Positions 8,596 through 51,725 of a DNA stretch of 64,000 bases are shown in pieces. Each line of letters starts with the position of its first letter. Within the stretch, counting starts at the first letter, position 1. The notes below the pieces were generated by a model. That model did no database searches, had not been told where the DNA came from, and saw only the letters and a list, made by a program, of their open reading frames with translations. Origin of the DNA: Mobula birostris (taxonomy: Eukaryota). The stretch covers positions 43,381,451-43,445,450 of the forward strand of contig NC_092373.1 in the NCBI RefSeq assembly GCF_030028105.1, written 5' to 3'. Both the position numbers and the translations under genes were made by a program.

Positions 8596-8739
8596 GTGAA
8601 TGTCTGTTCAGAATAAATTTTAACTTTGTATTTAGTTAGCTAATCTATGCTTAGATTTATGCATTCTGTTAGAGATGTTTGGGCATCCTTGAAAGAAATT
8701 TATTTGGTATATTTGCTTATTATTGTTACATGTATCAAG

Positions 8740-11700: not shown

Positions 11701-12003
11701 TTCACCAGCAACTTTTATGTGTGTCCCTACGACTGATCCCTGCCCTGCCCAGATGTAGACCGTCCGACGGTACTGGTCCCAACTCCCCCAGAAGTGGTTC
11801 CAATGCCCCAAGAATTTGAAACCCACCCTCCTGCACCACTGCTCAAGCCACATATTCATTCTAGCTATCCTACCATTCCAACTCTGGCTAGCATGTGGAA
11901 CTGGTAATAATCCCGAAATGATTACCTTTGAGGTCCTACTCTTTAATTTATCTCCTAGCTCCCTAAATTCAGCTTGTAGGACCTCATCCTGCTTTCTTCC
12001 TGT
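8740..12003 (-). mobile_element. Decayed CR1 LINE (ORF1 esterase to RT C-terminus)
   Basis: Minus ORFs KVIISGLLPVP...GFKFLGHW (ORF1 esterase), [30 protein letters not shown] and RPHLEYCVQFWSP. Confidence 0.9.
11563..11723. mobile_element. Fold-back Penelope-pLTR-like mini-element with degenerate hammerhead
   Basis: TSD tccctaggactga (11550-11562) / tccctacgactga (11724-11736). Inverted arms acacacataaaagttgctggtgaacgcagcag / ctgctgcgttcaccagcaacttttatgtgtgt. Confidence 0.8.
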
Positions 12004-25190: not shown

Positions 25191-25298
25191 GTTATCCCAA
25201 TGCTTCCAAGATTCCTTTGTGAAGAACTTTGCAGTTTGAATCCAATGGAGGATAAGCTAACCTTCTCTATCATTTGGACATTGACTCCTCAAGGAAAG
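25191..25298 (+). CDS. DIS3L2: DIS3L2 coding exon (108 nt)
   Basis: Acceptor aatacag|GTT and donor AAG|gtactg. Translates [36 protein letters not shown] (PMLP..L....CSL motif). Confidence 0.95.
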
Positions 25299-25399
25299 GT
25301 ACTGTTTTATCATTACCTGTATTCAACAAGTGTACCTTATTTCTGCGGTGTCTGGGTCAGGCTGTGCATTGAAGAATGTTTGCCATTGTTGAAGAGCAC

Positions 25400-25830
25400 T
25401 GGAAATGGCTGTTACAGTGGCTCTTATAATATACAAGATATTAAGAGGAATAGATAGGGTGGACTCGCCAGTGCCTTTTCCCCAGGGCACCACTGCTCAT
25501 GGCTTTAAGGTAAGGGGTGAGAAGTTCAAGGAGGATATTAGAAGAAGTTTTTTTTACTCAGAGAGTGGTTGGTGCTTGGAGTGCACTGCCTGAGTCAGTG
25601 GTGGAGGCAGATACACCGGCCCACAATGTTGTGCCTACCCTCAAACCTTGCTTCTCATATAACCCCCCACCTTAAATTCCTCCATACACCTGTCAAGTAG
25701 TCTCTTAAATTTCACTAGTGTATGGAGGAATTTAAGGTGGGGGGGTTATATGAGAAGCAAGGTTTGAGGGTAGGCACAACATTGTGGGCTGAAGGGCCTG
25801 TACTGGGCTGTACTATTTTATGTTGTGGGC
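25400..25830 (+). mobile_element. CR1 3' end containing an internal inverted duplication
   Basis: [11 protein letters not shown]...HGFKVRGEKF. Same subfamily as the 30768-31130 3' end. Confidence 0.8.
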
Positions 25831-26150
25831 CTGTACTTAGTAGGATTCAGAAGAATGGGGGGGGGGGGGTGTCATTGCAACTGAATATTGAAAGGCCTGG
25901 AGACAGTGGATGTGGAGAGGATGTTTCCTATAGTGGGGGAGTCCTGGACCAGAGGGCACAGCCTCAGAATAGAAGGTTGTCCCTTTGGGACAGCGATGAG
26001 GAAGAATTTCTTTAGACAGAAGGTAGTGAGTCAATGGAATTCATTGCCTCAGGCAGCTGTGGAGGCCAAGTCATTGGGTAAACTTAAGGAGGAGGTTGAT
26101 AGGTTCTTGATTAGTAAGTGCATCAAAGGTTATACGTAGAAAGCAGGAGA
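25830..26150 (+). mobile_element. CR1 3' fragment
   Basis: KGLETVDVERMFPIVGESWTRGHSLRI...KVVSQWNSLP. Confidence 0.8.
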
Positions 26151-26329
26151 ATGCCTTCTGTGCACCACAATTCCTATGGGGACGTTTTGTGGGTGAGAGA
26201 GTTCAAAATATCTGAGCATGGGCCATCAGGACATTTTGCGTGCCATTGTTCCTGAAGAGGTATTGGATTGTGCATAATTAGGGACTTGGCAAGGGCCAAT
26301 AAAAAGAAGTTGAGTTTAAGTGGAGTGGC

Positions 26330-29112
26330 CATTGTTGGAACATCCATTGTGTGAGTGGGTCAGTGTTAGAGTGGGGAATTGAGGCTTTGGCCTCAATTTA
26401 GGCAGGAGCTGTAGGTAGATGTTTTTGTTTATTCTTAAAGTTTTCTTTCCTTCTGATTACATATTTACGGCATTGGGGATGGCAGGCAGGATAGTGGAAT
26501 GCTCGTCTTATGGTATGTGGGAAGGCAGGAAGACCTCCAGTGTCCCTGACGACTACACCTGCAAGAGGTGTATCCTGCTGCAGCTTCTTTCAGACCGTAG
26601 TAAAGAATTGTCAAGAAATTGGAGCTAGAACTAGATGAACTCCGAATCATTTGGGAAGCTGAAGGGCTGATCGACAGGAGATAGAGGGAATCAGCTATAC
26701 CCAAGGTGCAGGGACACAAGTATTAGGTGACTGTCAGGAGGAGGAAAGGTAATAGAGTACCCTTGTAGCCATTCCCCTCAGAAACAAGTATAGTTTATTT
26801 TGAATATTGTTGGGAGATAACCTAGTAGGGGAAAGCCACAACGGTCAGCTCTCTGGCACTAAGTTTGGCTCTGTGACTTAGAACAGGAGTGGGGAGAAGA
26901 GGTGAGCTGTAGCGATGCAGTTCCTCATTGGTTTGGGAAACAGACAGGAGGTTCTGTGAACAAGAACTTGATTCCTGGATGGTATGTTGCCTCTCATGTT
27001 CCATGGTCAAGGACATCTCAGATTGAGTCCACAGCATTCTGAAGTGGGAGGCTGAGCAAACAGAGATTATGGTCCCTGTAGGTACCAATAACAGGAAGAA
27101 TTCTGAGGTTCTGCAAAGTGAGTCAAGAAGTTAGGTACTAACGTAAAGGACAGGACCTCCAGGGTTGTGATCTCAGGATTGCTACCTGTGGCACTTGCTA
27201 GTGAGGCCAGAAATAGAAAGATCATACAGTCTAAAACGTGGCTAAGGAGATGGTGCAGGAGGGAGGACTTCAGATTTTTGGATCACTGGGTTCTGTTCCA
27301 GGGAATGTGTACAGAAGGGATGGTCCGCACCTGAACTGGAGGGGGACTAATATCCCTGCAGGAATGTTAGCTAGTGCTGCACGAGGAAGTTTAAATTAGA
27401 GTTGCAGGAGAATGGGAACCAGACTGCCGGAACAGATAGAGGAGGGGTTGTGGAGACAGATTCTGTTAAAACCTCAGACAAAGTCAGCAATCAAAGGGTT
27501 GAACATGGTGGGATTAATGTTCTGAGTTGTGTGTATTTCAATGCAAGGAGTATTGTAGGAATGGTGGATGAGTTTAGTACATAGTTCAGCACATGGAATT
27601 ATGACATTGTACCATTAGTGAGACCAGGTCTGGCATCTCAGTGTTCCATGATTCCGTTGATGTAGACATGATAGAGTGGAAGAGATTAAAAAGGGAGGGG
27701 TGGCATTACTAGTCAGGGAAAATGTCACAGTGCTTAGACAGGACAGACTGGAGAGTTCATCCACTGAGGCTATATGGGTGGAACTGAGGAATATAACTCA
27801 GGAAGGGGATGACCACGTTAGTGGTACTATATTATAGACTACTCAACAGTCCTTAGGATTTAGAGGAGAAAATTTGTTGAAAGATCACAGACCTTTGCAA
27901 GAAAAATAAGTTTGTTGGATCAGAATCAGGTTAATTATCAACAGCATGTATCCTGAAATTTGTTCACTTAGCAGCTGCAGTACAATGCGATATATGATAA
28001 TATAAAAAGAATAAATAAATTACAGTAAGTCAGTAAGACAAGAATCAGCATGGGAGGCTGGTTAAGAAGGCTCAGTCACTTGGCATTCAGGATGAGGTAG
28101 TAAATTGCATTAGACATCGGTTTCGCAGGAGAAGTCAGAGTGATAGCAGATGGTTGCCTCACTGACTGAAGGCCTGTGTCTGGTGGTGTGCCACAAGGAT
28201 TGGTACTAGGTCATTTGCTGTTTGTCATCTCTCTCAATGATCTGGATGATAATGTGGTAAACTGGATTTTCAATTTGCAGATGCCACCGAGATTGGGGGT
28301 GTAGTGAACAGTGAAGAAGACTTTCAAAGCTTGCAGTGGGATCTGGACTAGCTGGAAAAATGGGCTGAAAAGTTGGAGATGAAATTTAATGCAGACAAGC
28401 ATGAGGTGTTGCATTCTTTGGAAAGACAAACCAGGGTAGAATTCAAATAGTGAGCAGTAGGGCACTGAAGCATGTGGTAGAACAGGGAGATCTGGGAATA
28501 TGGATTCGTAATTCCTTGTAAGTGGTGTCACAGGTAGGTGGGATTGCAAAGATAGCTTTTGGCACAGTGATCTTCATAAATCAAAGGAGTACAGGAGATG
28601 GAATGTTATGTTGATATTGTATAAGATGTTGGTGAGACCTAATTTCTACTATTGTGTGCAGGTTTGGTCACCTACTGATGGGAAGGATGTCAAATAGGTT
28701 GAAAGTGTGCAGAGAAAAATTAAAACGATGTTGCTGGGACTTGAGACCTGAGTTAAGGGAAAGGTTGGTTAGGACTAGGGTAAATGCAAGAAGGCTTTTT
28801 CCTCTGAGGGTGGGTGAGACTAGAACTAGTAGCCATTGGATAAGGATGAAAGGTTGAAAAGTTTGAGAGGAATCTGAAGTGGAGCTTCTTATCTCAGACA
28901 GTATTGAGAGTGTAGAACAAGCTGTGGGTGGAAGTGGCAGATACAGGCTTGTTATTAACATTTAAGATAAGTTTGGATAAGTACGCAGGTGAGAGGGGTG
29001 TGGAGGGCTATGATCTGGGTGCAGGTCGATGGGACTCGGCAGATTAATGGTTTGGCAAGAACTAGATGGGCCAAAGGACCTGTTTCTGTGTGTAGTGTTC
29101 TATGACTCTGAC
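26330..29112 (+). mobile_element. Decayed, internally deleted CR1 LINE including ORF1 N-terminus
   Basis: MAGRIVECSSYGMWE...YTCKRC (ORF1 Cys-rich), esterase remnants, YFNARSI and RT remnants. Tail tctatgactct. Short Rex-type tail fragment at ~27915-28030. Confidence 0.8.
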
Positions 29113-29644
29113 TTAAATGGGGTTAAGAAGGATGATAAATGAGCCATGGTGTAATGTCGGAGTAGACTTAATGGGCTGAATGGCCTAATTTGCTCCTATG
29201 TCTTATGATTTGATGGTCTTGTATTTTAATGAACACGATGCAATCAGAGTTTTCCCCTGATAACTCCCTTCGCCAAAATAGCTTACCTCTGGATATTTTG
29301 CGGTTGCAGTAATTCCAAAGCATAAATGGAATTTTGAACACTATTTTATGGCAGGAAGCATTTTTTCCCACTTACATGCCTAAACAAAGCAATATGTTTT
29401 TCCATAAAAAATATTATCCTACAGGTTTTGTTCATAGGTTTCAAGATGTCACTCAAGTGTTTCTTGGAATCCAGTAAGTTCAGCTCAAGTGATGGCACTG
29501 AAACATCGTGCAGCTGATCTCTGCTGTTGCTCATGTAGTTGAATGGTAATAGCAAAATGATCACAGGTGCAACAACTGTGATTCAGATATACTGTACACT
29601 AATAGAAATGGCCATTTTCTCATCTTCTTTAGGTACTAATTTTA

Positions 29645-30478
29645 TTTCTCAGATTCATTTATTTATCACATATACATCAGAACATACAGGGAAATGTGTC
29701 ATTTGTGTTAACAGCCAACACAGCCCTAAGAATGTGCTGGGGGCGATCACAAGTGTCAACCTCAGGTATGTGCTAGGGGCAGATCACAGGGTCATCTCAC
29801 ATTCCGGCACCAACATAGCATGCCCACAATGTTCAGCAGAACAACACAAGAAATAGCAACAAAACTAGGCCTTTTCTTCCCTCCTACTAGGCCTTTTCTT
29901 CCCATCTACTCATACACACCGATATGACCCCACCTCCAGGCCACCAATCTCCAGCGGACTCTCAGACTGCCAGACATTGGGCCTCTGATTCTCCCAGTGG
30001 ACTCGCAGACATCGGGCCTCCGACTTCTGCACAAGTGACTCAAGGGCTTTGAATATTGGGCTTCGGCTTCTGAACTCACCAACTGGGAGGTCACCAACTC
30101 ACCAACCTCGTGCCTCCTGCTTGCATGGACCTCCTATCTAGGGACCTAATGACATGGATAGGTCACCAACCCTCATCCAAGGGGCCTACCAGCCTCTGCC
30201 ATTGTCCATGGAGATTGCTGTTCTTCATCAGCAGTCCCTGCTGACCTGACATACAGTATGTCCTTGAAGATCGCTGGCCTTTGACTGTGGAGCACTCTGA
30301 CCTGAACTACAGCCACAGGCTCCTACCCCTAATCTCTAACTCTCTCATATCTCTGTCCCTAAACCTTAATCTGACCCCTGACTCCCTGTGCTGTCTACAA
30401 AGCTATCCGTACAAACTTAGTAAACAACTAAGACTGAATCACGACCTTGACGGACATCGCAGCTCAGCACCATCTTGA
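29645..30478 (-). mobile_element. Non-autonomous retroposon (5' AAGATGG, AATAAA/gaatct tail)
   Basis: caccatcttg at ~30468-30477 and tcagattcatttattt at ~29649. Same architecture as 24290-24928. Confidence 0.45.
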
Positions 30479-31707
30479 ATGGAAGAATTTCTCATTTCAT
30501 TTAAGTATTCAAAGAAATGGCTCAATTTTTGCAAGAATTAACTGCACAAAATAATTCACCTGAGTATACTGTCGCTCACATCACCTCCTCTTCCTGTGCC
30601 TGCCACTAATTGTGTAGTAACTAATTCTAGTTTAAGTTAATCTTTATCTTTTTTTTCTAATGCTGAATGACCACCCTTATTATTAAATAGGTTCTCTTTC
30701 AGTTTGTAAATAACCTATTAAGTCTGTATATTTAAGGTTTATATATCCTGTTTTGTACTGATTTGGTTTGAACATTGAACATAGGATAATACAGCACAGT
30801 ACAGCCCCTTCGGCCCACAATGTTGTGCTGACCCTTAAACCCTGCCTCCCATATAACCCCACACCTTAAATTCCTCCATATACCTGTCTAGTAGTCTCTT
30901 AAATTTCATTAATATATCTGCCTCCACCACTGACCCAGGCAGTGCATTCCACGCACCAACCATTCTCTGAGTAAGAAACCTTCCTCTTATATCCCCCTTG
31001 AACTTCCCACCCCTTACCTTAAAGCCATGTCCTCTTGTATTGAGCAATGGTGCCCTGGGGAAGAGGTGCTGGCTATCCACTCTATCTATTCCTCTTAATA
31101 TTGTGTATACCTCTATCATGTCTCCTCTCATCCTCTTTCTCTCCAGAGAGTAAAGCCCTAGCTCCCTTATCTGTGATCATAATGCATACTCTCTAAACCA
31201 GGCAGCATCCTGGTCAATCTCCTCTGTACCCTTTCCAATGCTTCCACATTCTTCCTATAGTGAGGTGACCAGAACTGGACACAGTACTCCAAGTGTGGCC
31301 TAACCAGAGTTTTATAGGGCTGCATCATTACCTCGTGACTCTTAAACCCTATTCCTCGATTTATGAAAGCTAACATCCCATAAGCCTTCTTAACTACCCT
31401 ATCTACCTGTGAGGCATGTACCCCCAGATCCCTCTGCTCCTCCACACTACCAAGTATCCTGCCATTTACTTTGTACTCTGCCTTGGAGTTTGTCCTTCCA
31501 AAGTGTACCAGCTCACACTTTTCCAGGTTGCACTCCATCTGCCACTTCTCAGCCCACTTCTGCATCCTATCAATGTCTCTCTGCAATCTTTGACAATCCT
31601 CTACACTATCCACAAAACCACTAACCTTTGTGTTGTCTGCAAACTTGCCAACCCACCCTTCTACCCCCACATCCAGGTCGTTAATAAAAATCACGAAAAG
31701 TAGAGGT

Positions 31708-33573
31708 CTTCGTTACTCTCCTGTTTTAGCCAGCTCTCAGGCTATAAACTGAATTTACATAAGAGTGAACTTTTTCCTTTGAATAATTGGATATCAACTA
31801 ATTCTAACCTTATGTTTAAAATTGTGAGAAACCAACTTACTTAGGTACAACAATTACTAAAAATTGTAAGTACTTATTTAAAGAAAATTTTCTTACCCTA
31901 TTAAATTATGTAAAAAGGACACTATCAAATTGGTTGCCTCTCGTTATCATTGATTGGTCGAATTAATTCTATTAAAATGAATATTTTACCTAAATTTATA
32001 TATCTTTTTAAGGCATTGCCTGTTTTTATCCCTAAATCTTTTTTTGATTCTCTTGATTCTATTATATCATCCTATATATGGAAAAATAAGCGTCCTAGAC
32101 TAAGCAAAATTCATCTTCAGAAAGCTAAAAAGAATGGAGGCCTAGCTTTACCAAACTTTAGGTTTTATTATTGGGCGGTTAATATACGTAATCTTACATT
32201 TTGGTTATATTACATTAATCGTAAGGATTGTCCGATGTGGGTTTCTTTAGAAGCTAACTGTTAATAAATTTGCTATTATTTCTCCTCTTGGACCCTCACG
32301 TCCTTTATCCCTGAGTAAGTTAACTGACAATTTGGTAGTTAAACATACAATGAGAATGTGGGTACAATTCCGAAAATACTTTGGCTTCTTGAGATTTTCT
32401 CTTTCAAGTCCCATTTTTTCTAATTAGTTTTTTAAATCTTCTATGATAGATGTAGCTTTTAAAGAATGGGATAGATTGGGTATTAAATGCTTCCAGGACT
32501 TGTTTGTGGAGGAAAGTCTCCTTTCGTTTGAGCAACCGTCAGCTAAATATAGCTCACTTTTTTCGATACCTACAAATAAGAGGCTTTTTACAGTCTCAAA
32601 TATGTACATTTCCTAAAAGTCCTGATAAAAATCTACCAGATGTAATTTTTAATTTGAAACCTTTTTATAATAGATCTATACCTAATATTTATAATATGTT
32701 GCTGGGAATGAGAAGTGTTCCTTTAGATAAAATTAAAAATCTTTGGGAACAAGACTTACAGACTTCAATTTCTGAGGAAACTTGGAATGAAATTTTTAAA
32801 TTGGTTAATATTTTATCGTTATGTGCTCACCGCTCTCCCCTACAATTTAAAACGGTCCATAGGGCCCATATGACCAAGGATAAGTTGTCTCACTTTTATT
32901 TGGATATATCTCCTGATTGTGATAAATGCAATAATGGAGAAGCTTTTTTCATTCATATGTTTTGGACATGTCTGAGTCTTGAAAAATATTGGAAAGAAGT
33001 ATTTCAAACCTTCTCGGTACTTTTTAAAGTAAATTTAAGCCTAATCCTTTGACTGCTTTATTTGGTATTGTTGGAGGAAAGGATATTTTGGAGAAATCTG
33101 ATTTGCATATTTTGGCTTTTATTTCTGTTATGGCTAGGAGGCCGTTTTTGCTTAAATGGAAAGATGCAGTTCCGCCCACTCATGTTAAATGGCTGCGTGA
33201 TGTGATGTCATGTTTAAATTTAGAGAAGATTCGGTGTTCAATTTTTGAATCCAGTCAAGACTTTCAAACTTTGTGGGGACCTTTTTTGAACTATTTTCAA
33301 AACCTTTGATTTGCCGTTAAAGCACAGATGATGGCTAATAATATACTTCTTTTTTCTTCTTCACTAATCAGCTTCGGTCTTGGTAGTGAGTTAGGGTTAT
33401 TTTCCATATAATAAATTTACTATATTTCAATATTATGAATTAATCAATTTGTATGAATATAGAGCAAGGAGTTTGTATGTGCGATTCAGTATAATATATT
33501 TGATATATTTCTTTTTTCTTAAACTCTGTATTCTTCTATGCAGAAAATTAATAAAAATATTGAAAAAGAAAAA
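31708..33573 (+). mobile_element. 5'-truncated L1-clade LINE nested in CR1
   Basis: 12-bp TSD aaaagtagaggt (31696-31707 / 33574-33585). AATAAA plus poly(A). ORF2 fragments GRINSIKMNILPKFIYLF, GGLALPNFRFYYWA and CDKC...HMFWTC. Confidence 0.92.
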
Positions 33574-34571
33574 AAAAGTAGAGGTTCTAGAACCGATTCG
33601 TGTGGGACACCACTAGTCACAACCCTCCAATCCGAATGTACTCCCTCCACCACGACCCTCTGCTTTCTGCAGGCAAGCCAGTTCTGAATCCACCTGGCCA
33701 AACTTTCCTGGATCCCACGCCATCTGACTTTCTGAATAAGCCAACTGTGTGGAATCTTGTCAAATGCCTTACTAAAATCCATGTAGATCACATCCACTGC
33801 ACTACCCTCATCTATATGCCTGGTCAACTTCTCAAAGAACTCTTATCAGGCTTGTTAGACACGATCTGCCCTTCACAAAGCCATGCTGACTGTCCCTGAT
33901 CAGACCATGATTCTCTAAATGCCCATAGATCTTATCTCTAAGAATCTTTTCCAACAGCTTTCCCACCACAGACGTAAGGCTCACTGGTCTATAATTACCC
34001 GGACTATCCCTACTACCTTTTTTGAACAAGGGGACAACATTCGCCTCCCTCCAATCCTCCGGTACCGTTCCCGTGGACAATGAGGACATAAGGATCCTAG
34101 CCAGAGGCTCAGCAATCTCTTCCCTTGACTCGTGGAGCAGCCGGGGGAATATTCCGTCAGGCCCCGGGGACTTGTCCGTCTTAATGTATTTTAACAACTC
34201 CAACACCTCTTCTCCCTTAATATCAACATGCTCCAGAACATCAACCTCTCTCATATTGTCCTCACCATCATCAAGTTCCCTCTCACTGGTGAATACCAAA
34301 GAGAAGTATTCAGTGAGGACCTTGCTCACTTCCACAGCCTCCAGGCACATCTTCCCACTTTTATTTTTAATTGGTCCTACCTTCACTCATGTCAGCCTTT
34401 TGTTCTTCACATAATTGAAGAATGTCTTGGGGTTTTCCTTTACCCTACTCGCCAAGGCCTTCTCATGCCCCCTTCTTGCTCTTCTCAGCCCCTTCTTAAG
34501 CTCCTTTCTTGCTACCCTATATTCGTGAATAGACCCATCTGATCCTTGCTTCCTAAACCTCATGTATGCTG

Positions 34572-34660
34572 ACGAAGGGTATCGGCCTGAAACGTCGACT
34601 GTACCTCTTCCTATAGATGCTACCTGGCCTGCTGCATTCCACCAGCATTTTGTGTGTGTT
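34572..34660 (+). mobile_element. 89-bp hammerhead-core mini-insertion
   Basis: Perfect 14-bp TSD cctcatgtatgctg (34558-34571 / 34661-34674). Core ctgacga-agg-gtatcgg-cct-gaaa-cgtc-gactg. Confidence 0.85.
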
Positions 34661-35473
34661 CCTCATGTATGCTGCCTTCTTCCATCTGACTAGATTTTCC
34701 ACCTCACTTGTCACCCATGGTTCCTTCACCCTACCTTTATCTTCCTCACTGGGACAAATTTATCCCTAACATCCTGGAAGAGATCCCTAAACATCGACCA
34801 CATGTGCATAGTACATTTCCCTGCAAAAACATCATCCCAATTCATGCCTGCAAGTTCTAGCCTTATAGCCTCATAAATTGCCTTCCCCCAATTAAAAATT
34901 TTCCTGTCCTCTCTGATTCTATCCTTTTCCATGATAATGCTAAAGGCCAGGGAGCGGTGGTCACTGTCCCCCAGATGCTCACCCACTGAGAGATCTGTGA
35001 CCTGACCCAGTTCATTACCTAATACTAGATCTAGTATGGCATTCCCCCTAGTCGACCCGTCAACATACTGTGACGGGAATCCGTGTTGGACGTACTTAAC
35101 AAACTCTGCCCCGTTTAAACCATTGGAATTAATCGGGTGCCAATCAATATTAGGGAAGTTAAAGTCACCCATGATAACAACCCTGCTATTTTTGCACCTT
35201 TCCAAAATCACCTTCCCAACCTGCTCCTCAGTATCTCTGCTGCTACCAGGGGGCCTATAGAATACTCCCAGTAAGAGTAACTGCTCCCTTCCTGTTCCTG
35301 ACGTCCACCCATACTGACTCAAAAGAGGATCCTGCTGCATTACCCACCCTTTCTGTAGCTGTAATAGTATCCCTGACCGTAATGCCACCCCTCTTCCCCT
35401 TTTCCTCCCTCTCTATCCCTTTTAAAGCACTGAAATCCAGGAATATTGAGAATCCATTTCTGCCCTGGTGCCA

Positions 35474-35635
35474 ACAACAGGAACTCTGCAGATGCTGGAA
35501 ATTCAAGCAACACACATAAAAGTTGCTGGTGAACGCAGCAGGCCAGGCAGCATCTCTAGGAAGAGGTGCAGTCGACGTTTCAGGCCGAGACCCTTCGTCA
35601 GGACTAACTGAAGGAAGAGTGAGTAAGGGATTTTC
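35474..35635 (-). mobile_element. 162-bp Penelope-pLTR-like mini-element
   Basis: Perfect 15-bp TSD tctgccctggtgcca (35459-35473 / 35636-35650). Contains a complete hammerhead motif. Confidence 0.85.
35569..35606 (-). ncRNA. Minimal type I hammerhead ribozyme motif
   Basis: Minus strand reads UAGUC-CUGACGA-AGG-GUCUCGG-CCU-GAAA-CGUC/GACUG. This gives both conserved boxes, helix I (UAGUC:GACUG), helix II (AGG:CCU), palindromic ACGU helix III and a GUC cleavage triplet. Confidence 0.78.
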
Positions 35636-37652
35636 TCTGCCCTGGTGCCAGCCAAGTTTCTGTAATGGCCACTACATAATAATTCCATGTACGTATCCAA
35701 GCTCTCAGTTCATCACCTTTGTTCCTGATGCTTCTTGCGTTGAAGTACATGCACTTTAGCTCTTCTACCTTACTACCTTTACACCTTTTATTCTGCTTCT
35801 TTTTCCTCGAAGCCTCTTTATATGTTAGATCCGGCTTTACTCCATACAGTATACTTGCAATTCTTGCATGACCTTTATCCTCCTCCACCTCACTATGTGC
35901 TCTAACACTCTGGTTCCCCTCCCCCTGCAAATCTAGTTTAAACCCCCCGCGCCCCCCCCCCCCCCCGGAGCAGCACTAACAAACCTTCTCACAAGAATGT
36001 TTGTCCGCCCCCCCAGTTCAGGTGCAAACTGTCCCGTTGGAACAGGTCCCACCTTCCCTGGAACAAGGCCCAATTGTCCAGAAACATGAAGCCCTCCCTC
36101 CTGCACCAACTCCTTAGCTATGTACTTAGCAGAATTATCTTCCTATCTCTAGCCTCACTAGCACGTGGCATAGGTAACAATCCTGATATTGCAACCTTGG
36201 AGGTCCTGTCCTTCAACTTTGCACCTAACTCCCTAAACTCTTTTTGCAGGGCCTCCTCCTGCTTCCTATCCACGTCATTGGTCCCTACATGGACCATGAC
36301 CTCCGGCTGCTCACCTTCCCTCTTGAGAATACTGAGAACTCGATCCGAGATATCGCGGACCTTGGCACCAGGGAGCCAACAGACCATCCAGGATTCTTGA
36401 TCTCTCCCACAAAACCTCTTATCTGTCCCCCTAACTATCGAATCCCCTAAAATTACTGCTCTCCTCTTTTCCCTCCTTCCCTTATGAGCTGAGGGTCCAG
36501 TCTTGGTGCCAGAGATGTGATCACTGCAACTTGTCTCTGGTAGCTCATCCTCACCAACAGTACCCAAAACGGTATACTTATTATTGATGGGAATGGCCCT
36601 TTCCCTCTCCTGACTGTCACCCAGCTACCTGTCTCCTGACTTATAGGAGTTTGCAAATCAGATTCTCAGCATGTTTGTTGTGTGTTTGTCAGCAAAATAG
36701 CGCTATCTTGATCTATTCTTGAAATTCCAGAACTTTTGATCATATCCCAGTCTTGCCTTTCTTGCATGTATCATTGAATTTTGCTGCCTCAGGGTGGCTT
36801 AAGATTCCTCAGCAAAGGTAGCTTACCAAAGCACATTGATAATTATTTCATATTTTTGCTATTGTTTTCCTATGATATGGAAGGAGGTCACTTGGCCCAT
36901 TCACTTTATACTACTCTCAAAACAATACCATCATTTTCATTCCCCTGTTATTTCCTTAGAGCTACATTGTAACTGTAATCAAATTGCAAAATGTAGGAAA
37001 ATCCTTAAAATTGACCTGATAGTGAAATAAATTAGATGTTTGTCATATTTTAGTTAGAGACACCGTTGCTTTTTATGTTTTCAAATATTTGTTGAAGTCA
37101 TTTAAATTCTTCATTAAAATGAAAGGAAACAGTTAATAAACATTGTGGTTCATGACTGAGTCTGCAATGCTAATTTACATGGACTGATAATCTGTTTCCC
37201 AACTGAGAAGGAGTCTTTGAGGAGCTGAAAGAAAACCTTTCTCATATCCTGTGAAGCTAGAAAAAGGATAAAATGTGTCAGTGCATGTTTTATCGCCTGC
37301 TGAGTAATTGATTGTGTTACTGGTATAGCAGCTTTATTATCCATGGGTAGGCAAGGCCAGCTCCATATTTTCTAATGATGACATTCATAATAAGTCAAAC
37401 AAGAAATACAGCATCGTTTTTCAGTCAATTCTTTAAAAATGAGGAAAAATTATAACATTCATTTTGGCATGAACCATATTCTCTTTAACAATATACTTGT
37501 AATTAGTCAGTTCCTCTTTTAAAGTGGCATATATTTGCTGTCTCCTTTACAATACTATATCTGTGTATTAGAGGATCATACAAAGATGCGAACTGTCAAG
37601 TTGCAGAAAATAATATCGAAAGGAAAAGACCATAAGGTCCCGCTGGTATATA

Positions 37653-37806
37653 CAGGTCGACCTTCACTAATCCGACATCATTGGGACCTGAGGAGTGCTG
37701 GATTAGTGAAAATGCCAAATTACAGAAGGATCACATTTAGCATAATCAGTGCCAAATTATCGAAGGAACTGGATTACAGGTAGTCGGATAAGTGAAGGTT
37801 GACCTG
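37653..37806. mobile_element. 154-bp Tc1/pogo-type MITE
   Basis: TA-flanked. TIR caggtcgaccttcactaatccgac / gtcggataagtgaaggttgacctg. Confidence 0.85.
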
Positions 37807-38129
37807 TACTAAATAAATATGATACCTTGTATAGGTATACATGCCTGTCAAAACTATGCAACTGTTGGGAGAAGTGCAAACCCAGGTTAAAGATCCAGGC
37901 CTTCCTAACCGATTAAAATTAATCCTGTGCATCACCTGTCATTGATAATGCATTATTTATCCGCAGAATAGGGGTATATCAATGAATTTGTGTTCACTGC
38001 ATGTGCCTGGGGTTTTTCTCAAAGAAACTACCATTTTCAAGTTTGAAAAAAATTCGACATTAAAACACAACAGAAATTCATTACCCCAGCTACTCACTAA
38101 GTTAATTATCGAAGCAAATGAATCGTGTA

Positions 38130-39320
38130 ACATTTATGACTCAGGAGGAGGCCAATTGGTGTATTATGTCCATGCCAACTGATAAAGAGCCGTGCTGCCT
38201 CATTTTGCCTTCCAGCGCTTGTTATCTGGTCCTTCAGGTTAAAGCTCTTTAAGTACGTATCCAAGTACGTTTAATGTCATTAGAATTTCTGCTAGGAGCA
38301 AGCTTTCAAGCAATGAGTTCCAGAATCTTACCACTCTATGGGTGAAAATAACTTAGCCCATCTCCCCTCTAATTCTTCTACCAGTAACTTTAAGTCCGTA
38401 ATCCTAGCACCTGCTGCTTTGCTCCACTTAGTCCCCATATTATTTGATACTCCTCAGTCAAGTATCCTAGCCTCTAATACAATTAATCCCAAATTATTCA
38501 ATAGCAACCTTTTTCTAGCCCTGGCAACAGCTGTGTAAATCCCTTATTTAATGCAATCACATCTTTTGTACGAAGTCTCAACCAGAGCTGGATCTAATAA
38601 TCCGGCTTTGGCCCAAATAAGTTTGTTCTAGCATGACCTCTGCTGTCAACATCTCTTCTTTTTTCCAATAAAGGAAACGATTTCGTATGTCTCATTAACC
38701 ACTCATGTGACCTTTAAGTATATATGGTCTTGGACTTGTCCCTCTGTTTATAGCACTTCTTGTATCCACATATAGTATGCTCTTGTTTTGGTTTCCAGTG
38801 CAATTCTTGACAACTCTGGATTAAATTCCATTTGTAATAAACTTATTACCTTCTCAAACAAATTCAATCACAATATTCCCTTAACAGATCCATGCTGACT
38901 ATGCTTGTTTAATTTGTGCCTTTCTGAATGGAGGTTATTACTTTCCCTCAGAAATGAATCCAGTAATTTGCACTGCACTAATTTTATAGTTAGTGGACTG
39001 TAATTATTTTTATATACCAATCTTGCTTTTTCAACAGTGCTACAACATTACCAGTTCTCCAAGCATCTGGAAGAAGTGAAAATGTTGATCACCAATTTTC
39101 TGCATTGAATTTTTTAAAGGTCTTGGTTATGTTCCATCTGGGTCAGGCAATTTATCGACTTTCAAAGACGCTAACTGTCTTAGTAATCTCTATCTTATGT
39201 GTTCATTCCATCTACTATTTTTCAAATTACCATCTAAACTATAGTGGTAGTGTGATTTCCTCCTCCCTTCTTTGAAGATAACTGCAAAGTATTCATTAGG
39301 AATCTTGCTTAAATTGCCAA
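38130..39320 (-). mobile_element. Old, highly decayed CR1 fragments
   Basis: Residual similarity (gagttccagaatcttaccactct, ccatgctgact, tgcaaagtattcatt). No ORF. Confidence 0.5.
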
Positions 39321-39519
39321 TATAAATGCAATACATTCCCATCATCATATAAAACAAAATTACATCAGTCCCATAGCAAAGCTTTTCAAATATAGAAGCT
39401 TTTAGCCTTTCTAGACCACCTTAATAATTTATAATAAACTGGTGCACATCCTTCTCCTTTCCCAAAAGCTCAATATCATCTAAAGAGGCTAGAACTGGAT
39501 ATAGTTGTCCACTATGGAG

Positions 39520-40226
39520 TAGAATAGACAATAGACAATAGGTGTAGGAATAGGCCATTCGGCCCTTCGAGCCAGCACTGCCATTCACTGTGATCATGGC
39601 TGATCATCCACAATCAGTATCCAGTTCTTGCCTTATCCCCATAACCTTTGATTCCACATCTTTAAGAGCTCTATCCATCTCTTTCTTGAAAGCATCCAGA
39701 GACTTGGCCTCTACTGCCTTCTGGGGCAGAGTATTCCATACATCCACCACTCTCTGAGTGAAAAAGTTTTTCCTCAACTCCGTCCTAAATGGCCTACCCC
39801 TTATTCTTAAACTGTGGCCTCTGGTTCTGGACTCACCCATCAGCGGGAACATGCTTCCTGCCTCCAGTATGTCCAATCCCTTAATAATCTTATATATTTC
39901 AATAAGATCCCCTCTCAGCCTTCTAAATTCCAGAGCATACAAGCCCAGTTGCTCCAATCTTTCGACATATGACAGTCCCGCCATCCCGGGAATTAACCTT
40001 GTGAACCTACGCTGCACTCCTTCAATAGCAAGAATGTCCTTCCTCAAATTTGGAGACCAAAACTGCACACAGTACTCCAGGTGTGGTCTCACCAGGGCCC
40101 TGTATAGCTGCAGAAGGACCTCTTTGCTCTTATACTCAATTCCCCTTGTTATGAAGGCCAGCATGCCATTAGCTTTCTTCACTGCCTGCTGTACTTGCAT
40201 GCTTGCTTTCAGTGACTGATGTACAT
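39520..40226 (-). mobile_element. Young 5'-truncated CR1 with an open 198-aa RT C-terminal frame
   Basis: ORF 39604-40200 KKANGMLAFI...RPHLEYCVQFWSP...RTRGH is uninterrupted. Tail (attgtct)n. Confidence 0.9.
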
Positions 40227-41359
40227 AGTATGGTAGGTCTGATAATTAACTGCTAAAAAAGTTTGTGTCAATAAATTAAACTATTTTGAAAATAACTGGT
40301 CACTAGAACTTCCAATGTGATGCAGCTGGCTCATTACTTTTGCTTTGGACTTCATTCATTCCTAATTACCCTTTCTCCTCTGTGCTTTACTGCCTGGCCC
40401 TGCTGAAGACTATTGCCTTGATCTTCGAGCTAGCCTTTAGCAGAGGATAATGAGACTTGTAGGGAAGAGAGGAGAGGGAGAAAAGGGCAGCCAAAGGCTT
40501 GATGTTTTTTCCCCCTAGGTTGGATTAGACTTGGTTTCTCTAATTAGAATTTTGGATCTCAGTTGAATTTACTGACCACAGGGGCAGGATGACACCAAGT
40601 TTAACAATTTCCCTGGCACTGACAACTGTGAATGTAATTTTATATTTCCATCTGTATATGTGCTTGGACATAGATCTAATATGCTGTTGTCTCATGACTA
40701 TTGCATCATTCGTGTTTCTCTCTGCCTAACTCAGTCACTAACAAGTGGAGTGCATGGGCATCTATGGACTCCAGTCAGTTTTGACCACCTACACAGCTAC
40801 ATATTCTTCTTAGTTTGTCATTGTTCTGTAGCAGTCTCTCATTTTAAAAATAAGCAATTCTTACAATATAGGCTTAGCATTGTGTAACTAAGCTATTTGA
40901 CTGTAGACATGCATCACCAGTGACAGGGCAAAAAAACTTAGAGGTGCACAAGAGAACTGAATTAGAGAAAAGCAGAGACCCAAGGATGTGGCACTGGGCG
41001 ATGTTACATTTAATAAGGCAAATTTACGTAGGGGTTCATACATAATGAATATTTAAAATGAAATCTTTTGTGGTGATACAGGCACAGCTTTGTAATTGGA
41101 CTTCCAAAGGTATTGATATTCTGTTGCTCATAACAATGTGATTAAACCTGTGATTAAAGCTCATTTTTATTTTATGTGATTAACTGTTTAATTTCATGAC
41201 CTGTCTCATTGTTAAGTCATCTTTCTCAGCTAAAACTTTTGCTTGTTTATCAGAGATGGACAAGTATCTGCAGCAAAATCTCATTTCTTAGTTGGTTCAC
41301 CCTCAATAAATCTCATTTCTTAGTTGGTACACCAGCAGTTCAGCTGCTCTAGTTAACTT

Positions 41360-41590
41360 AATGGCATAAGACATTGGAATAGAATTAGTCTGTTTGGCCC
41401 ATCGAGTCTGCTCTGCCATTTGATCATAGCTGATTTATTTTCCTTCTCAACCTCATTTTCCTGCCTTTTCCCTGTAACCTCTGATTCCCTTACTAATCAT
41501 AAACCTATCAAGCACCGCTTTAAGTATGTCCAATGACATGGCCTCCACAGATTCCATAAATTCCACGGATTCACCACCCTCTGGCTAAAG
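41360..41590 (-). mobile_element. CR1 3'-end fragment
   Basis: cataagacattggaatagaattag...ggcccatcgagtctgc...caccaccctctgg. Confidence 0.7.
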
Positions 41591-41679
41591 TACTTCAGTA
41601 AGCAGTATTGTTTTAAGACATTTAAAATATTTGTCGTTATCAAAATTGATGAACCTCTGATGGCAGAATCAGGCCATAA

Positions 41680-42700
41680 ATGCAGTTCTCCTTTAAGAAA
41701 ATGGAAGCAGCAATGCCGCGCTGGTCTACAGGTACGACTGAAGCACAGAGGCCTTCGATTTCCACTTCCAACTATATTGTTGGTGAATGTACAATGTATG
41801 GAAAATAAAAATGAAGACCTCAGAGCAAGATTGCTGTACCAGAGGGACATTAGACACTGCTGTGTACTTCGCTTCACGGAAAAATGACTATCCCCTGTCA
41901 TTTCAGATACAGCGCTGCATCTCGATGGCTTCACCATTCTTCACAAAAAATGGACAGCTCAGTCTTTTGGAAGAGGAAGTGGAGCATGCTTTCTGATTAA
42001 CTCATGATGCCACAAACGTGGTAGTTCTGACTTGGGCCTACTCACCTGACCTGGAACATCAAGCAGTCAAGTGTCATCCATTTTATCTGCCGAGGGAGTT
42101 TTTTTTGCCATCATCCTGGTGGTGGTGTATATTTCACCTCAGGACAAGGCCAGGCAGGTACTGCCCATGCTTTGGAAAGTCTAATCATCTAGCTGTACTT
42201 CTAATCCCAGTGTATGGTCAGAAACTAAAGACTGCAGTGCCACTGGTGAAGACCAAGAAGGTAGGGTCAAGGGAGGCAAGGAGCGCTTACAAGGCTGCTT
42301 TGAGGCAGTGGACTGGACAACGGTTCAAGGATTCATCTTCAAGTGTGAATAAATATGCTGCAGTTGTCACTGACTTTATCAAGGTCTGGGTGGATGAGTG
42401 TGTGCCTTCGAGAACATTCTGCACGCACCCAAACCAAGAGCCAAGGGTGAATCAGGAGATTTGTAGTCTGCTGAGGGCCGGATCTGTGGCACTTAAGACC
42501 CGTGATCCAGAACTATACAAAAAGTCCAGGTACGACCTACAGAAGACTATTTTAAGAGCTAGCAAGCAATTCCAATTGAGGTTAGAAACAGAATTGGTTG
42601 CACGTCAGCTGTGGCAGGTTTTGCAGGCCATTACTTCCTACAAAGCAAAACCTAACATCATGAATGCTGTAATGGTTCACTCCCAGATAAGCTCTCACCA
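41680..42700 (+). mobile_element. Rex/Babar-like LINE 5' (APE) fragment
   Basis: PLPTILLVNVQCMENK...CCVLRFTE, HPFYLPREF, FGKSNHLAVLL, YKKSRYDLQK and WQVLQAITSYK. Confidence 0.8.
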
Positions 42701-43806
42701 GAGGTGAGAGTGGATTACAGACCGTTGGAAATCAATGCTAGCGAGGTAGTAATGTTAACCCTTTCATTCCGAGGATCATTATTGTAAACCACCTCTGGAC
42801 TTTCACCAGTGTGCATCCTTTCTTAGATATGGGGCTCAAAACTGCTCACAATACTCCAAATGTTATCTGAATAATTGCTTTTCTTTTGATTGCATAACTC
42901 TGGAAACAAACTACATTGTTTCTTGTTTCTTGACCTCAGCTTTCATGGATTGCTTGTATAGAATCTGGCCACTGACCATATATGTACTAACTCTGTACAG
43001 CACCTCTGTTTTCCTACTTTGTTCTCAGGAGGCAGGAGATATTGTAAGATATAAAAATTGCGTGATTTTCTTCCCGATCTCTGGTTCCATATATCTAATG
43101 CTGTCTAAAATATCAATTTTGTTATAATTATTATCTAAAACTGATAGTTTCATGCTGTTCAGAATCTGATTCACTTCATTTCTTAAGTTGAAAAAATTGG
43201 TGATAACACACTTTGTCACTGCCAGTGTTTCTAGATGAATTTGATCATTGTTGATTGCCAGCTGCATCAGAAGGAGCTTATTATTTGGTTTATAAAAGAC
43301 AAAAACACAACATTGAGGCTGCATGTGTCTTGTTTTGATACTGTACAATCAATAGGCCAGTCCATTGTTGAACACATCTGATTATCGTTAACTGATAAGC
43401 ATGTTCTCCACCTTTGCATTACCTTCCTTTTTACATCAACCACTAATGTATCACATACCTTGTGATGCTGGTGAGTTTTTAGTGCATGGCATTCATAAAT
43501 TACTTTGGGAATCTTCTTCATTTGTTTGTCAGTGATTATCTGGATAATTGCTTCTATGATCACTTTATCTTGTACACTTTATGTAGTCCTGTGTAGGTCT
43601 GAAGTCTAATGTACTGTAGTTGTGTGTTGTTTCAGGTAGTCTAGTGTAGTTTTGTGTTGTTTCAGGTAGCACCATGGTTCTGGAGGAACGTCATTTCATT
43701 TTTACTGTGTACTGTACCAGCAGTTATGGTTGAAATGATAATAAAAGTGACTTAACTTGACTTGGTTTTTCAAGACAGAGAAAATTGAAAGGAAAATTTC
43801 TTTAAA

Positions 43807-44435
43807 GAATCAGAACCAGGTTTATTATCACCGGCATGTGACGTGAAATTTGTTAATTTAGCAGCAGCAATTCAATGCAATACATAATCTAGCAAAGAGG
43901 AAAAAAAATATAGTAATAATAAACAAGTAAATCAATTACGTATATTGAATAGATTTTTTAAAAATGTACAAAAACAAATACAGTATATTTAAAAAAGTGA
44001 GGTAGTGAACAAAGTTTAATGTCCATTTAGTAATTGGATGGCAGAGGGGAAGAAGCTATTCCTGAATTGCTGAGTGTGTGCCTTCAGGCTTCTGTATCTC
44101 CTACCTGATGGTAACAGTGAGAAAAGGACATGCCCTGGGTGCTGGAGGTCCTTAATAATGGATGCTACCTTTCTGAGACACTGCTCCCTGAAGATGCCCT
44201 GGGTACTTTGTAGGCTAGTACCCAAGATGGAGCTGACTAGATTTACAACCTTTTGCAGCTTCCTTCGGTCCTGTACAGTAGTCCCTCCATACCAGACAGT
44301 GATGCAATTTATCAGAATACTCTCCACAGTACAACTATAGAAGTTTTTGAGTGTATTTGTTGACATGCCAAATCTCTTCAAACTCCTAATAAGGTATAGC
44401 CACTGTCTTGCTTTCTTTATAACTACATCGATACA
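43807..44435 (-). mobile_element. Rex/Babar-like LINE 3' fragment
   Basis: LKNFYSCTVESIL..CITVWYG...HPGHVLFSLLPSGRRYRS...NSFFPSAI. Tail aataaacctggttctgattct. Confidence 0.85.
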
Positions 44436-45637
44436 TCAGCATATGTTGAAGAGACTTTGCATTAGAATAGTACAGTAGGAAAAGTGAAAATACATGGAAC
44501 AGGTTATGGAGGTTCATAGAAGAATACTTAATTGGCCATAGGATGTGTCCAGTTTAGTTTTCTGTATGTGTATTCACTCACTAAATGTCACTTTCTTATC
44601 CATTACTATAAATTTGCACCAACAAAGGAGACTTGTGATCCATGTTTTCCTTGTCAACGTTTCCTTTTGTCAGCACTGTGTAGATGTGCATATGTGCACT
44701 CACAGCAGCTTATCAAAAATTTGGCAAATAAATCACCCAGACTAAGCCGGATGCTAAGCGCAATTTCCTATTATTCAGCAGTTCCACCCTTTGATTTGAT
44801 CATTTTCACCTAAACTAGAATATCGGTGGACTAAAAAAACTCCTTATGTCATATCATTGATAAAATAGAATATTCACATCTCATCACTCCCAGATGAATG
44901 CATCCATTTTATTGTTGGAATTTAAACATTTATTATTGAAAGCCATGTATAAATCATGAACAAAGTTTTCACTTTGGCCGTGACTTTTACTTAAATTCCA
45001 CTCAGTTATCTAAGCCATTCAGGCGGTTGAGTTCTCTGATTTATTGTACTAGTTCAATGCATCCTTATAAATTTAACAACTATAAATTCATTCAGAAGAA
45101 AGCATTGCTGCTTTCTTTGCTGTAATTCAGTATCTTTAGTTTTTGTCACAGGAGATAATGAGGCTATAAGACTACTGAACTCCCTGCCACCACCCATATG
45201 AAGTGCTAGTAGCATTATACTGTTTACTTGTACGTACACCTTTATTATTTGTAAAGTTATTTCTGGTAATATTATTTCTTGTTTTATGTGTGTGAGCTAT
45301 CTCTCATTTGGCAGTATACATGTATCATGTGTATTGTTGAATGACAATAAACTTGAACTTGACATTATAAAACCTGCTTAACAATTACAGTTTGCATTTA
45401 AATATAACCTCTAATGTAATTAAACAAAATCACTGGGTACTGTACAACAGCATTTTGAAACAAAAGTGTTAACCTGTCTATGTAAGATAGGATTAGGCTG
45501 ATGATCAAGTAGTTAATAAGAGTGAGTATCATCAGATGTGTGATAGGTAGGGAGGCTGGTTTAGAGAGTGGATTCCAGAGTTCAGGATCTAGCAGGGTCT
45601 AATTGTTTTATTTGATTTATGGAGAAAAGGTATTGCA

Positions 45638-45651
45638 CCACCCTCTGGTGG
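45638..45651 (-). promoter_or_regulatory. Candidate CTCF site
   Basis: Minus strand CCACCAGAGGGTGG, one mismatch to CCASYAGRKGGCRS, in apparently non-repeat AT-rich DNA. Motif match only. Confidence 0.3.
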
Positions 45652-46819
45652 TTAATTAAAATGTTGTGTTAGGCTGCTATTATAACAGTAGTATTTATGA
45701 TGGTAAAAGACATGACACCAGTTAAGATTCAAGATTTTTAATATATTTTGGAAAACTGTATACATTGGTCTACATATTGGTTGTATTCATGATTGCCATG
45801 TCGTCATGTTGAGTTTTCCTAACTTATAAATTGGGTAGATATCACTTTAGTCTGTTCTATTTTCAAAAACTTCAAATTAAAGTTAGGACATTTGCAATAA
45901 CCTGAATATTAGATTTGCCTTTAGAATGTCATGGAGATTGTCCTTTCAATATATACCTCGATATTTTTGTCTTTATGTTGGCATAAGGTGGAAGTTTTCT
46001 TTCCAATCTTATTGAACTGAACTCCTTTTGCTTTCCTTGTTATTATAGGCATGCAAAACCTTTGATATCAGTGATTTCCCCAAGATAGTTGAAGCTTGTA
46101 TGTTCAGCTGTGATGTTTGTTGTATTGTAGCAAGTGCAATCCTAGTTGTTGGAAACTTGGGGAGCAGTTAAAGAAAATACTGGAACCTGTGAATACTTGT
46201 AATCTAATAATTCTTTGCTTGTGGGACACTGTGTATGTAAGTGTGTTTTTAGTTAGTTTGGTAAATCTGCTTCATTAAGCAACACATATCAATTTCTGGT
46301 TTGAACTTGCTCCATTCTGAACAGAGAAAGTTTTATGCAGTATTCCCTGAAGAGTTCATTTGGTTTTTGTAAGAGTGAAAATAGCTGTATGAGGTTCAGT
46401 AAAGGGGTTATGATAATTTGATCAGGATCTTGTCAGTATAGCTGACATCATTTATTATAGTGATACGAGGGGATGGTTTGAAGATGAAAAATAAGAATGT
46501 CCAATGATAGGTTAACTGTGCAGAAGCTGAATTAGAAGCATTGCAAATCATTCGAAGGGCAGGCATGGAATCAAAATAATTGTGTGACCTTAAAATGGCA
46601 GAGTCCAAATTGGCAGCTAAGGCAATGAAATTTCCGAGTTCGGCTGAAGTGGCATTGGTGCAGTTATCTCTATACTTGTACAGATGGTGGGGGAGCTTAC
46701 CTGAGTCAAATTGAAATACGAAATGACATATGCAATTAAAAAGCAAAACATGATTGGTTTCCAAAGCAATTCCGTTTCTTTGAATTGAAGGAGTTATTTA
46801 TCAGTCTGAGAACGATCTG

Positions 46820-47615
46820 AATCCTCTTCCCACTCATCATTAACAGTTCTACAATTAGCACCGTTCCAACATTCAATTTCCTGGGCATCATTATTTTGTA
46901 GGACCTCGTGGGAGAACCATATCTCCATTAACAAAAAGGCTTAGCAAAGGATATACTACTTTCAGCAGTTGGTAAAATCCCATCTTTCCTGGAACTTACT
47001 GTTGCAATAATACACTACCATCATAGAGAGAATTCTCACATCAGCTATTACTGTCTAGTTTGGTGCAGCATCCTCTCACAATATATAAAAGGTACAGCAA
47101 ACTGTCAGGTGAGAAGAAATGGTCATTGGCTGCAGTCTACCATCACTTCAGGACTTGTATGTATCCAAGAAGAAGAAGCAGGCAGGAAAGATCATTGCAG
47201 ACATTACCTATCCTACATACTGTCTTTTCCAAAAGTTCCCTTCTGGAAAGTGCTATAGAGCTATTAAAATAAAAAAACTTCATGTCATCTTAAAAGTTTC
47301 TTCCCCCAGTCAGTTAATCTGATCATTCATTCTAGTTAGCCCACCCCCACCCCACCAACCCTCCTCTGTCTATTATTCCTGTCACTGCACTGCACTGTAA
47401 ACACGTAGACCATTTTTTATAATGCTTTTTACACTCTGGTATTTCTGTTTTTATACACATTTTATTCTGTATCTGTACTTAACCTCTAACTTTATTCTTT
47501 ATGCAATTCTTTATAATTGTTGAATGCTGTTTATTTTTGTTGCGTATCACACCCTGACCAAGACACAAATTCCTATTACATGTATATGGCATAAAAAGTT
47601 GATCTTTGATTCTTG
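46820..47615 (+). mobile_element. Decayed Rex/Babar-like LINE 3' fragment
   Basis: ttcaatttcctgggcatc..., LPSLQDLY...HP...FPSGKCYR-type remnants. Tail ataaaaagttgatctttgattcttga. Confidence 0.7.
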
Positions 47616-47767
47616 AGTAATCTGTTGTGGTGCTACAGCAGAGAGAATAGGTGTGAGTAAACAAGTTGCGTACTTGGTCTCAAACAGCAGATGAAAGGAC
47701 TTGGTTTTGTTATCCTAGTATCAGCAATGAAAAGTGATAACGAGATTTGGATATATTTTGCAATATA

Positions 47768-50700: not shown

Positions 50701-51618
50701 AATACATTTGTCATATATTTTCCAACAGTACTCTATCTGCTACTTTTTTTGCCCGGTCTTCCAATTTGTCTATCCTGCTACGATTGCACTGCCTCCTCAG
50801 GACTACCTACCCCCCACCTATCTTCGTATCATCCGCAAACCTTGCCACAAAGCCATCATTTCCAGTATCTAAATCATTGACAAGCAGTTTGAAAAGCAGC
50901 GATCCCAATACTGACCCCTGAGGAATGAAGTGCTGATTCACACTGATCACTGTTGTACTCAGTACAGTGGATGATAGCTTCAGTCTTTTTGCTTCGTATG
51001 CTGTTGAAGCGCAAAATTTGAAACACTTAAAAAGCAGCTTATTGGCCTGTGAGCAACGCCTTTGAAGACGAGTTATCTTTTCACTCTATTGCCCTCACTG
51101 TGCACTGTACACAAATACAAAGTGAGTTAAACAACTTGTTTAAATCAAAATCAAAAAAATCACCTGAGATGAAAGCTTTCTTCAGTGTTTTTCTTGAGAT
51201 TGCTTTACTTATGAAATTGCAGAGGGTTAAGTAAAATATGTATTAAATTCAATGCAGAATCGCAGCATGCCTAAATATACTAATACTATCGATTATTCTC
51301 ACAACCAGAGTTAAACAAGATAGTGCACATACGCAGCACTTCATAACTACGCAGTGTAACTAAGAGTAATCTCATGGCACAAAGGTAAACATAATACTTA
51401 CTTCAAATCTATCTACTGAGTGTTTAACAATATTACCAAGAACTCAAGACTCACAGATACTGCTGTTTCAAGAGCAAATAAAGAGTAGAAGGAGATGTGT
51501 CTTCCACCATACTTCAAATCGAATCAAAACTAATCCACGCAGGAAGTGATATAAAAAACAGCTTATGTATAGGAAGTAATGTTCATACAAATGAACTACA
51601 CGTCTAGAGGACGGAACA
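47768..51618 (-). mobile_element. Internally deleted BEL/Pao LTR retrotransposon with both LTRs
   Basis: Diverged direct repeats 47768-48283 and 51085-51618. Purine tract-like gtcaggtgggaca next to the 3' LTR. Peptides FSSWKSLTRAIAWLL and PYTLKTCSG...TLIECD...HLKAIADKIP are BEL-type pol/protease remnants. Possible TSD atata/atatg. Confidence 0.8.
49908..50926 (-). mobile_element. CR1 3' fragment nested in the BEL element
   Basis: KKANVILAFISRG...RLHLEYC. Tail ctatgtcttatggtctt. Confidence 0.85.
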
Positions 51619-51725
51619 ATATGCATGCTTTTCATTTGCCATTCAATTTATGGAAGATGTGATGTGGAACTGAATAAATAGTAATTGTTTCCTTTAAAAA
51701 TCTTTCTCTAATTTATATTTTGCAG

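Follow-up and report, generated by a model that had tools for sequence, protein, structure and literature searches.

A short hammerhead sequence lies in a 162-bp insertion on the antisense strand of a gene of Mobula birostris, and the question is to which RNA it belongs. The initial annotation saw a potentially active self-cleaving RNA in a tiny non-coding retroelement of its own. The window, that is, the whole stretch of 64,000 bp that was analysed, and the related copies in the genome point to a different origin. With a probability of roughly 90%, the motif (38 nt) is the type I minimal hammerhead in the pLTR of an abundant Penelope-like element (PLE), and the 162-bp copy is a 5′-truncated insertion of the 3′ end of this element that is likely inert in place.

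The motif occupies 35569..35606 on the minus strand, and re-reading it from 35606 to 35569 gave the annotated sequence. The CUGANGA-type box (CUGACGA, 35601-35595), the GAAA box (35581-35578) and the GUC triplet are all present. In hammerhead numbering, 35595..35601 represents C3 to A9, and 35574..35581 comprises G12 to A15.1, helix III and C17. Helix III is the palindrome ACGU without a loop, as had been claimed. The 5′ strand of helix I (35602..35606) pairs with 35569-35573. Its annotated extent of 5 bp was correct, but it consists of four Watson-Crick pairs and a terminal U·G. According to folding and the sampled copies, 35582..35594 comprises a bulged A (35594) and helix II, which has 4 bp closed by G10.1·U11.1 and a loop of 4 nt. 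The cut between 35574 and 35573 is a prediction from the hammerhead numbering. The motif combines CUGANGA, GAAA and a UH triplet with an open helix I of 4-5 bp and a closed helix II. The unpaired base between A9 and 10.1 is an A in 88 of 96 copies, and positions 15.2-16.2 are CG.

A structural descriptor of type I minimal hammerheads found one match in the window and none in 100 dinucleotide shuffles. In 660 kb of random genome, it had eight matches, against none in 10 shuffles. The motif in the window is more than a chance occurrence. Covariance models had also been suggested as a check; here, an Rfam scan of 33000-38000 detected no hammerhead family at E ≤ 10. We take this as a limit of the models and not as evidence against the motif. 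The assignment to the minimal type I hammerheads of Penelope pLTRs was borne out by the boxes, by the pLTR location and by motifs identical to that of the window on either side of the element's ORF (L067, L070 and others). The motif is of the published kind and the window copy is an ordinary one. The requirement for a dimer, put forward in the initial annotation, is to be expected from the literature on PLE minimal hammerheads (PMC4209133).

Helix II had been drawn with 3 bp, AGG/CCU. A better solution is GGGU/GCCU, 4 bp with the loop CUCG after a bulged A. The open hammerhead fold has −7.0 kcal/mol with the bulged A and 4 bp, compared to −5.6 kcal/mol in the 3-bp register. In a sample of 96 copies, G10.1 and 11.1 were paired in 75 of 87 scorable cases, the A-U closing pair of the 3-bp register in 40 of 90. 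Energy and pairing counts across the sampled copies rule out AGG/CCU as the family structure. The minimum-energy fold of the monomer (−11.0 kcal/mol) retains helix I and the 4-bp helix II and pairs the core GACG with CGUC; this predicted fold blocks the core and is inactive. Folding z-scores of −1.24, 0.18 and 0.22 are unremarkable, so stability gives the motif no support.

The closing pair of helix II deviates from the published pattern. Positions 10.1 and 11.1 form the most conserved pair after 15.1-16.1, with tolerated exceptions noted (PMC3088659), and G10.1-C11.1 is described as highly conserved in the PLE minimal hammerheads (PMC4209133), whereas the window copy has G·U, as has the dominant young class. 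In the random sample, 37 of 87 copies had G-C and 34 had G-U. Genome-wide, the exact 35-nt core occurred 20,359 times in the U11.1 (T) form and 4,733 times in the C11.1 form, a ratio of about 4.3. Decay of CpG in individual copies was ruled out as the source of U11.1: the opposite-strand decay product had 1,076 exact matches, far fewer than the T form. Given this scarcity, U11.1 was likely already present in the elements from which the youngest burst arose.

The insertion (35474..35635, minus strand) consists of 160 bp of the PLE 3′ end, pLTR plus tail, and two extra bases at the 5′ junction. These two bases are absent from the parent, with which the copy agrees from the third base on. The tail of about 33 nt (35474..35506) is present in about half of the family copies. 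The insertion is flanked by a target-site duplication of 15 bp, the 5′ copy at 35636..35650 and the 3′ copy at 35459..35473 in the orientation of the element. Both copies are 100% identical over 15 nt and 177 apart, as annotated. The duplication may be 14 or 15 bp long, as the first base of the 3′ copy, a T, may be the last base of the element. Homologous LINE copies with an empty site (L113, L115) contain the sequence once each, which identifies it as a true duplication. The insertion splits a decayed LINE fragment with an APE-type endonuclease region (35001..36100, minus strand, limits extending past the examined range). It matches PF14529 with E = 1.7e-8, is 86-93% identical to L113 and L115 and belongs to a LINE that we take to be CR1-like.

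The position antisense to DIS3L2 was confirmed. Plus-strand exons have matches to OB_Dis3 and RNB, and in the PDB the best match was DIS3-like exonuclease 2. The insertion is located in a 26-kb intron (25299..51725, plus strand, AG/GT boundaries read) between consecutive RNB exons at about 25191-25298 and from 51726. The DIS3L2 pre-mRNA contains only the antisense, non-catalytic strand of the motif. Lying backwards within the intron of a gene, the hammerhead copy is likely an inert passenger. A same-strand partner for a dimer was sought in the window, where no other minus-strand copy of the motif was present within 7 mismatches.

Other family pieces are present in the window. At 34569-34663 on the plus strand, sense to DIS3L2, lies a tail-less copy that starts at C3 and so lacks the 5′ strand of helix I. 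On both sides, it is bordered by a perfect repeat of 14 bp (34558-34571, 34661-34674). This copy is inverted to the 162-bp copy at a distance of 891 nt, and the two could pair in the pre-mRNA over 71 nt with 93% complementarity. At 11568-11724, element positions 95-157 (minus strand) are joined head-to-head to a tail-less 31-126 (plus strand) with mutated core boxes, a typical inverted PLE stub. An old family copy of 74-76% identity is located at 7936-8046 on the minus strand. Near the window end, open frames of repeated units at 63239-63842 (plus strand) are probably a tandem repeat.

The parent element was recognised in related loci. A genome search with the 162-bp query yielded 398 candidates, of which 40 were scored and 30 loci retrieved; all 40 were 98-100% identical to the window copy. 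In these 30 best-matching loci, the 3′ end was nearly fixed and the 5′ end variable. Six of the 30 shared the whole retrieved 1.66 kb, with homology continuing beyond the 1.5-kb fetch (a four-copy duplicated locus excluded). Their frames carry the RT motifs QTKGVAMG and YIDD, a CX4CxxC linker, seen between RT and EN in L034 and L035, and GVIY-CxxC-LYIG. Pfam matches to RVT_1 (E 3e-5 to 8e-4) and GIY-YIG (E 4e-4 to 1e-3) were below the gathering cut-offs and a PDB search with the PLE ORF had no match, so the protein call is based on weak matches together with the motifs. A probe from the 5′ part of the ORF gave 2,202 candidates genome-wide, and the same pLTR was directly upstream in 7 of the 30 loci examined. 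In five of these seven near-full-length loci, the ORF lies between two motifs on the same strand, at a distance of 3,507-3,727 bp from each other. The parent unit is 3.5-3.7 kb long and forms partial tandems, pLTR-ORF-pLTR, in which either end carries the same motif. The length varies because some copies contain a direct repeat of about 205 bp in the Pro/Ser-rich N-terminal part of the ORF, seen in L068, L069 and L070 at about 4000-4490 (oriented). The likely start codon follows the hammerhead at a distance of about 135 nt. None of the seven near-full-length loci has an unbroken ORF; a currently active source was therefore not seen among them.

The fixed 3′ end, the frames with RT and GIY-YIG motifs and the flanking pLTRs together identify the window copy as the truncated 3′ end of an EN+ PLE. 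The view of the carrier as a tiny non-coding element of its own thus gave way, since the 162 bp are the 3′ end of a protein-coding element. By motif, the parent would be an EN+ PLE of the Neptune/Nematis type. It has the RT, a CX2-5CxxC linker and a GIY-YIG domain with CxxC between its motifs described for these elements (Craig et al. 2021, PMC8557442). Like the PLEs of that study, the family has a tail of 30-40 bp on one side, partial tandems, 5′ truncation and inverted 5′ copies. It differs by the N-terminal internal repeat of about 200 bp in some copies, and its clade is assigned by motif, not by phylogeny. The Poseidon PLE PAc of Anolis carolinensis (Frangieh et al. 2024, PMC11167929) likewise has a hammerhead near the junction of pLTR and ORF and two classes of 3′ ends that are one tail apart. 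The PAc hammerhead overlaps the start codon, unlike that of the family studied here, and the linker Zn-finger of this family is described as absent in Poseidon (PMC11167929).

The closest match for the ribozyme are the minimal hammerheads in the pLTRs of PLEs (Cervera and De la Pena 2014, PMC4209133). As reported there, they are type I, with a helix I that is short, one unpaired base separating 9 from 10.1 and a palindromic 15.2-16.2 without loop 3; they are located in the pLTR and occur mostly as single copies from truncated PLEs. The family is larger, with at least 30,087 copies compared to 4,000-9,000 in coelacanth and Xenopus (PMC4209133), counts obtained by different search methods. No paper on this particular family was among the results of the literature searches; the supplements of PMC4209133 or bioRxiv 10.64898/2026.07.22.740005 may list it.

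The abundance estimates depend on the probe. Besides the exact 35-nt core, its degenerate form had 30,087 genome matches and a downstream 40-mer had 37,809. BLAST detected 86 family fragments in 660 kb (66 random stretches), about one per 8 kb; the roughly 520,000 fragments genome-wide that follow are a rough extrapolation from these 86. Four of the retrieved loci (L009-L012, G000:C33) have the same 161-bp insertion. They are 97-98% identical over 1.66 kb including the flanks and 8-12 Mb or less apart. The near-identical flanks indicate a duplication of the host region after insertion.

The ends of family copies were mapped in the first 100 exact 40-mer matches on contig C1, copies starting beyond position 70 being excluded. 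Because extension stopped at subfamily differences in this mapping, the 5′ ends that lie upstream of position 0 are minimum values. The 3′ ends were bimodal, with 49 copies ending at element positions 114-136 and 51 at 151-173; the difference between both classes is the PLE tail. An inverted piece directly preceded 20 copies. At least 5 nt were kept 5′ of the scissile bond in 94 copies, which suggests that most family copies were likely made from uncut RNA. 5′ ends of the kind that cleavage would give were not enriched: one copy of the 100 starts at position 63, the cut, compared to about 0.44 per position over 46-70. Half of the copies (50) start within the 162 bp; 23 of these begin at positions 30-36, where helix I has its front edge, a clustering with p ~7e-11 relative to a uniform distribution. 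A transcript start or an RT stop at this site may account for the cluster. The window copy is outside this class. It extends beyond the predicted cut by 60 bases of the parent, so its RNA template was likely uncut at this hammerhead.

Sequence decay was analysed in older copies. The initial annotation had asked for preferential conservation of the core boxes and helices. In 71 older copies, the columns of core plus helices were more uniform than the linker that follows the motif (p = 0.004), whereas the core did not exceed the downstream block in uniformity (p = 0.56); the majority fraction was 0.84 in the core, 0.68 in the linker and 0.86 in the downstream block. No two-sided compensatory change stood out in the older copies. 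The copies fit neutral decay after insertion, with only partial support for constraint on the ribozyme; selection on catalysis was not shown by these comparisons. The core boxes were intact in 20 of 25 young copies and, with increasing age, in 7 of 43 and then 0 of 28. The least conserved core base was A6, replaced by C in 13 of the 96 copies sampled. The A6C change is known from natural hammerheads and favours Mn2+ (PMC7151607). A C6 class of middle age (L095, L099, L116, L123, L124, L134 and others) seems to have been amplified with this non-canonical core.

An inert window copy is compatible with activity elsewhere in the family. The family hammerhead may cleave in vivo within the PLE RNA cycle, with short copies or small circles arising from cut RNA, a possibility that we regard as doubtful. 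Contigs of four sequencing runs cover the element; the RNA nature of these runs is a guess, and none of the runs listed as containing the element is recorded as RNA. One contig each in runs X1 and X3, from two studies, joins element position 136 to position 63 (window 35500/35573), exactly at the cut and without microhomology. The joint is absent from 1.13 Mb of retrieved genomic DNA and not among the joints listed for X9 and X19. It gives a weak hint at some cutting, in line with the intact core boxes of most young copies. Against this, the joint is a single contig per run and one of 10 listed joints, it may be a genomic tandem, and contigs can show neither strand nor ends. The lone genomic start at position 63, the G·U closing pair as the dominant young state and the C6 copies also speak against cleavage in vivo. 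Taken at its strongest, the joint would mean that the hammerhead cuts in cells despite its weakened G·U closing pair and that a 74-nt circle or repeat (element 63-136) forms by joining of the 3′ product at its tail-less end. It would be among the smallest ribozyme-made RNA circles, with tens of thousands of genomic templates, but this version is very improbable.

The 162-bp piece could also be an independent non-autonomous element, SINE-like or a monomer of a non-LTR retrozyme, which would have a short transcript of its own that is cut and mobilised. Four independent copies with target-site duplications start at positions 1-3 (L001, the L009-L012 group, L014 and L015) among the 30 best BLAST loci. 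This list was ranked by the match to the window copy itself and is biased to such ends; among the first 100 copies of C1, none starts at 1-3 and six start at 1-24. Half of the C1 copies are shorter than 162 bp, with the aforementioned cluster at 30-36, but copies retain sequence 5′ of the cut and the window motif is identical to the motifs flanking the ORF. Animal retrozymes were proposed to derive from pLTRs (bioRxiv 10.64898/2026.07.22.740005). Like the insertion, the animal non-LTR retrozymes are short and non-coding, are related to a pLTR and have a type I hammerhead and a target-site duplication of more than 4 bp (PMC7229834; bioRxiv 10.64898/2026.07.22.740005). They are defined by tandem units (PMC7229834), whereas the window copy has none, its motif is minimal and not canonical, and its ends are not set by the cut. 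The locus has no head-to-tail array, and no re-entry joint was present in the 1.13 Mb. Membership in the retrozymes fails on the missing tandem organisation, and we consider an independent element very improbable.

A co-option of the window copy to regulate DIS3L2, either by a self-cleaving antisense RNA or by base-pairing with the inverted copy at a distance of 0.9 kb, is hardly credible despite the intron location and the complementary neighbour: the copy is young, being 98-100% identical to other top copies, it lies deep in the intron inside a LINE relic, and at the observed density of family fragments such inverted neighbours are expected.

A truncated PLE insertion, the preferred reading, would have the following history. 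The PLE protein would have nicked the LINE fragment in the DIS3L2 intron. Reverse transcription may have been primed at the tail end of a PLE RNA that was uncut at this hammerhead, and would have stopped after 160 nt. Repair would have left the duplication of 14-15 bp. In the parent transcript, the motif may cleave slowly and require a dimer or the protein of the element, as the literature suggests. Metazoan PLE minimal hammerheads showed no cleavage as monomers and low cleavage as dimers (PMC4209133; review PMC6765202; PMC6155905). For the anole PLE, hammerhead cleavage was reported to need the element's protein and to be dispensable for insertion in vitro (PMC11167929). Cleavage would, by the same literature, not be needed for insertion of the window copy.

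The single copy in the window is of little importance. The family lends itself as a natural test of two questions, namely if PLE hammerheads are cleaved in vivo and if their cleavage has a bearing on transposition. Its youngest burst, at least 20,000 copies likely derived from sources with a G·U pair, its older C6 class and its likely mostly uncut templates fit the dispensability of cleavage observed in vitro.
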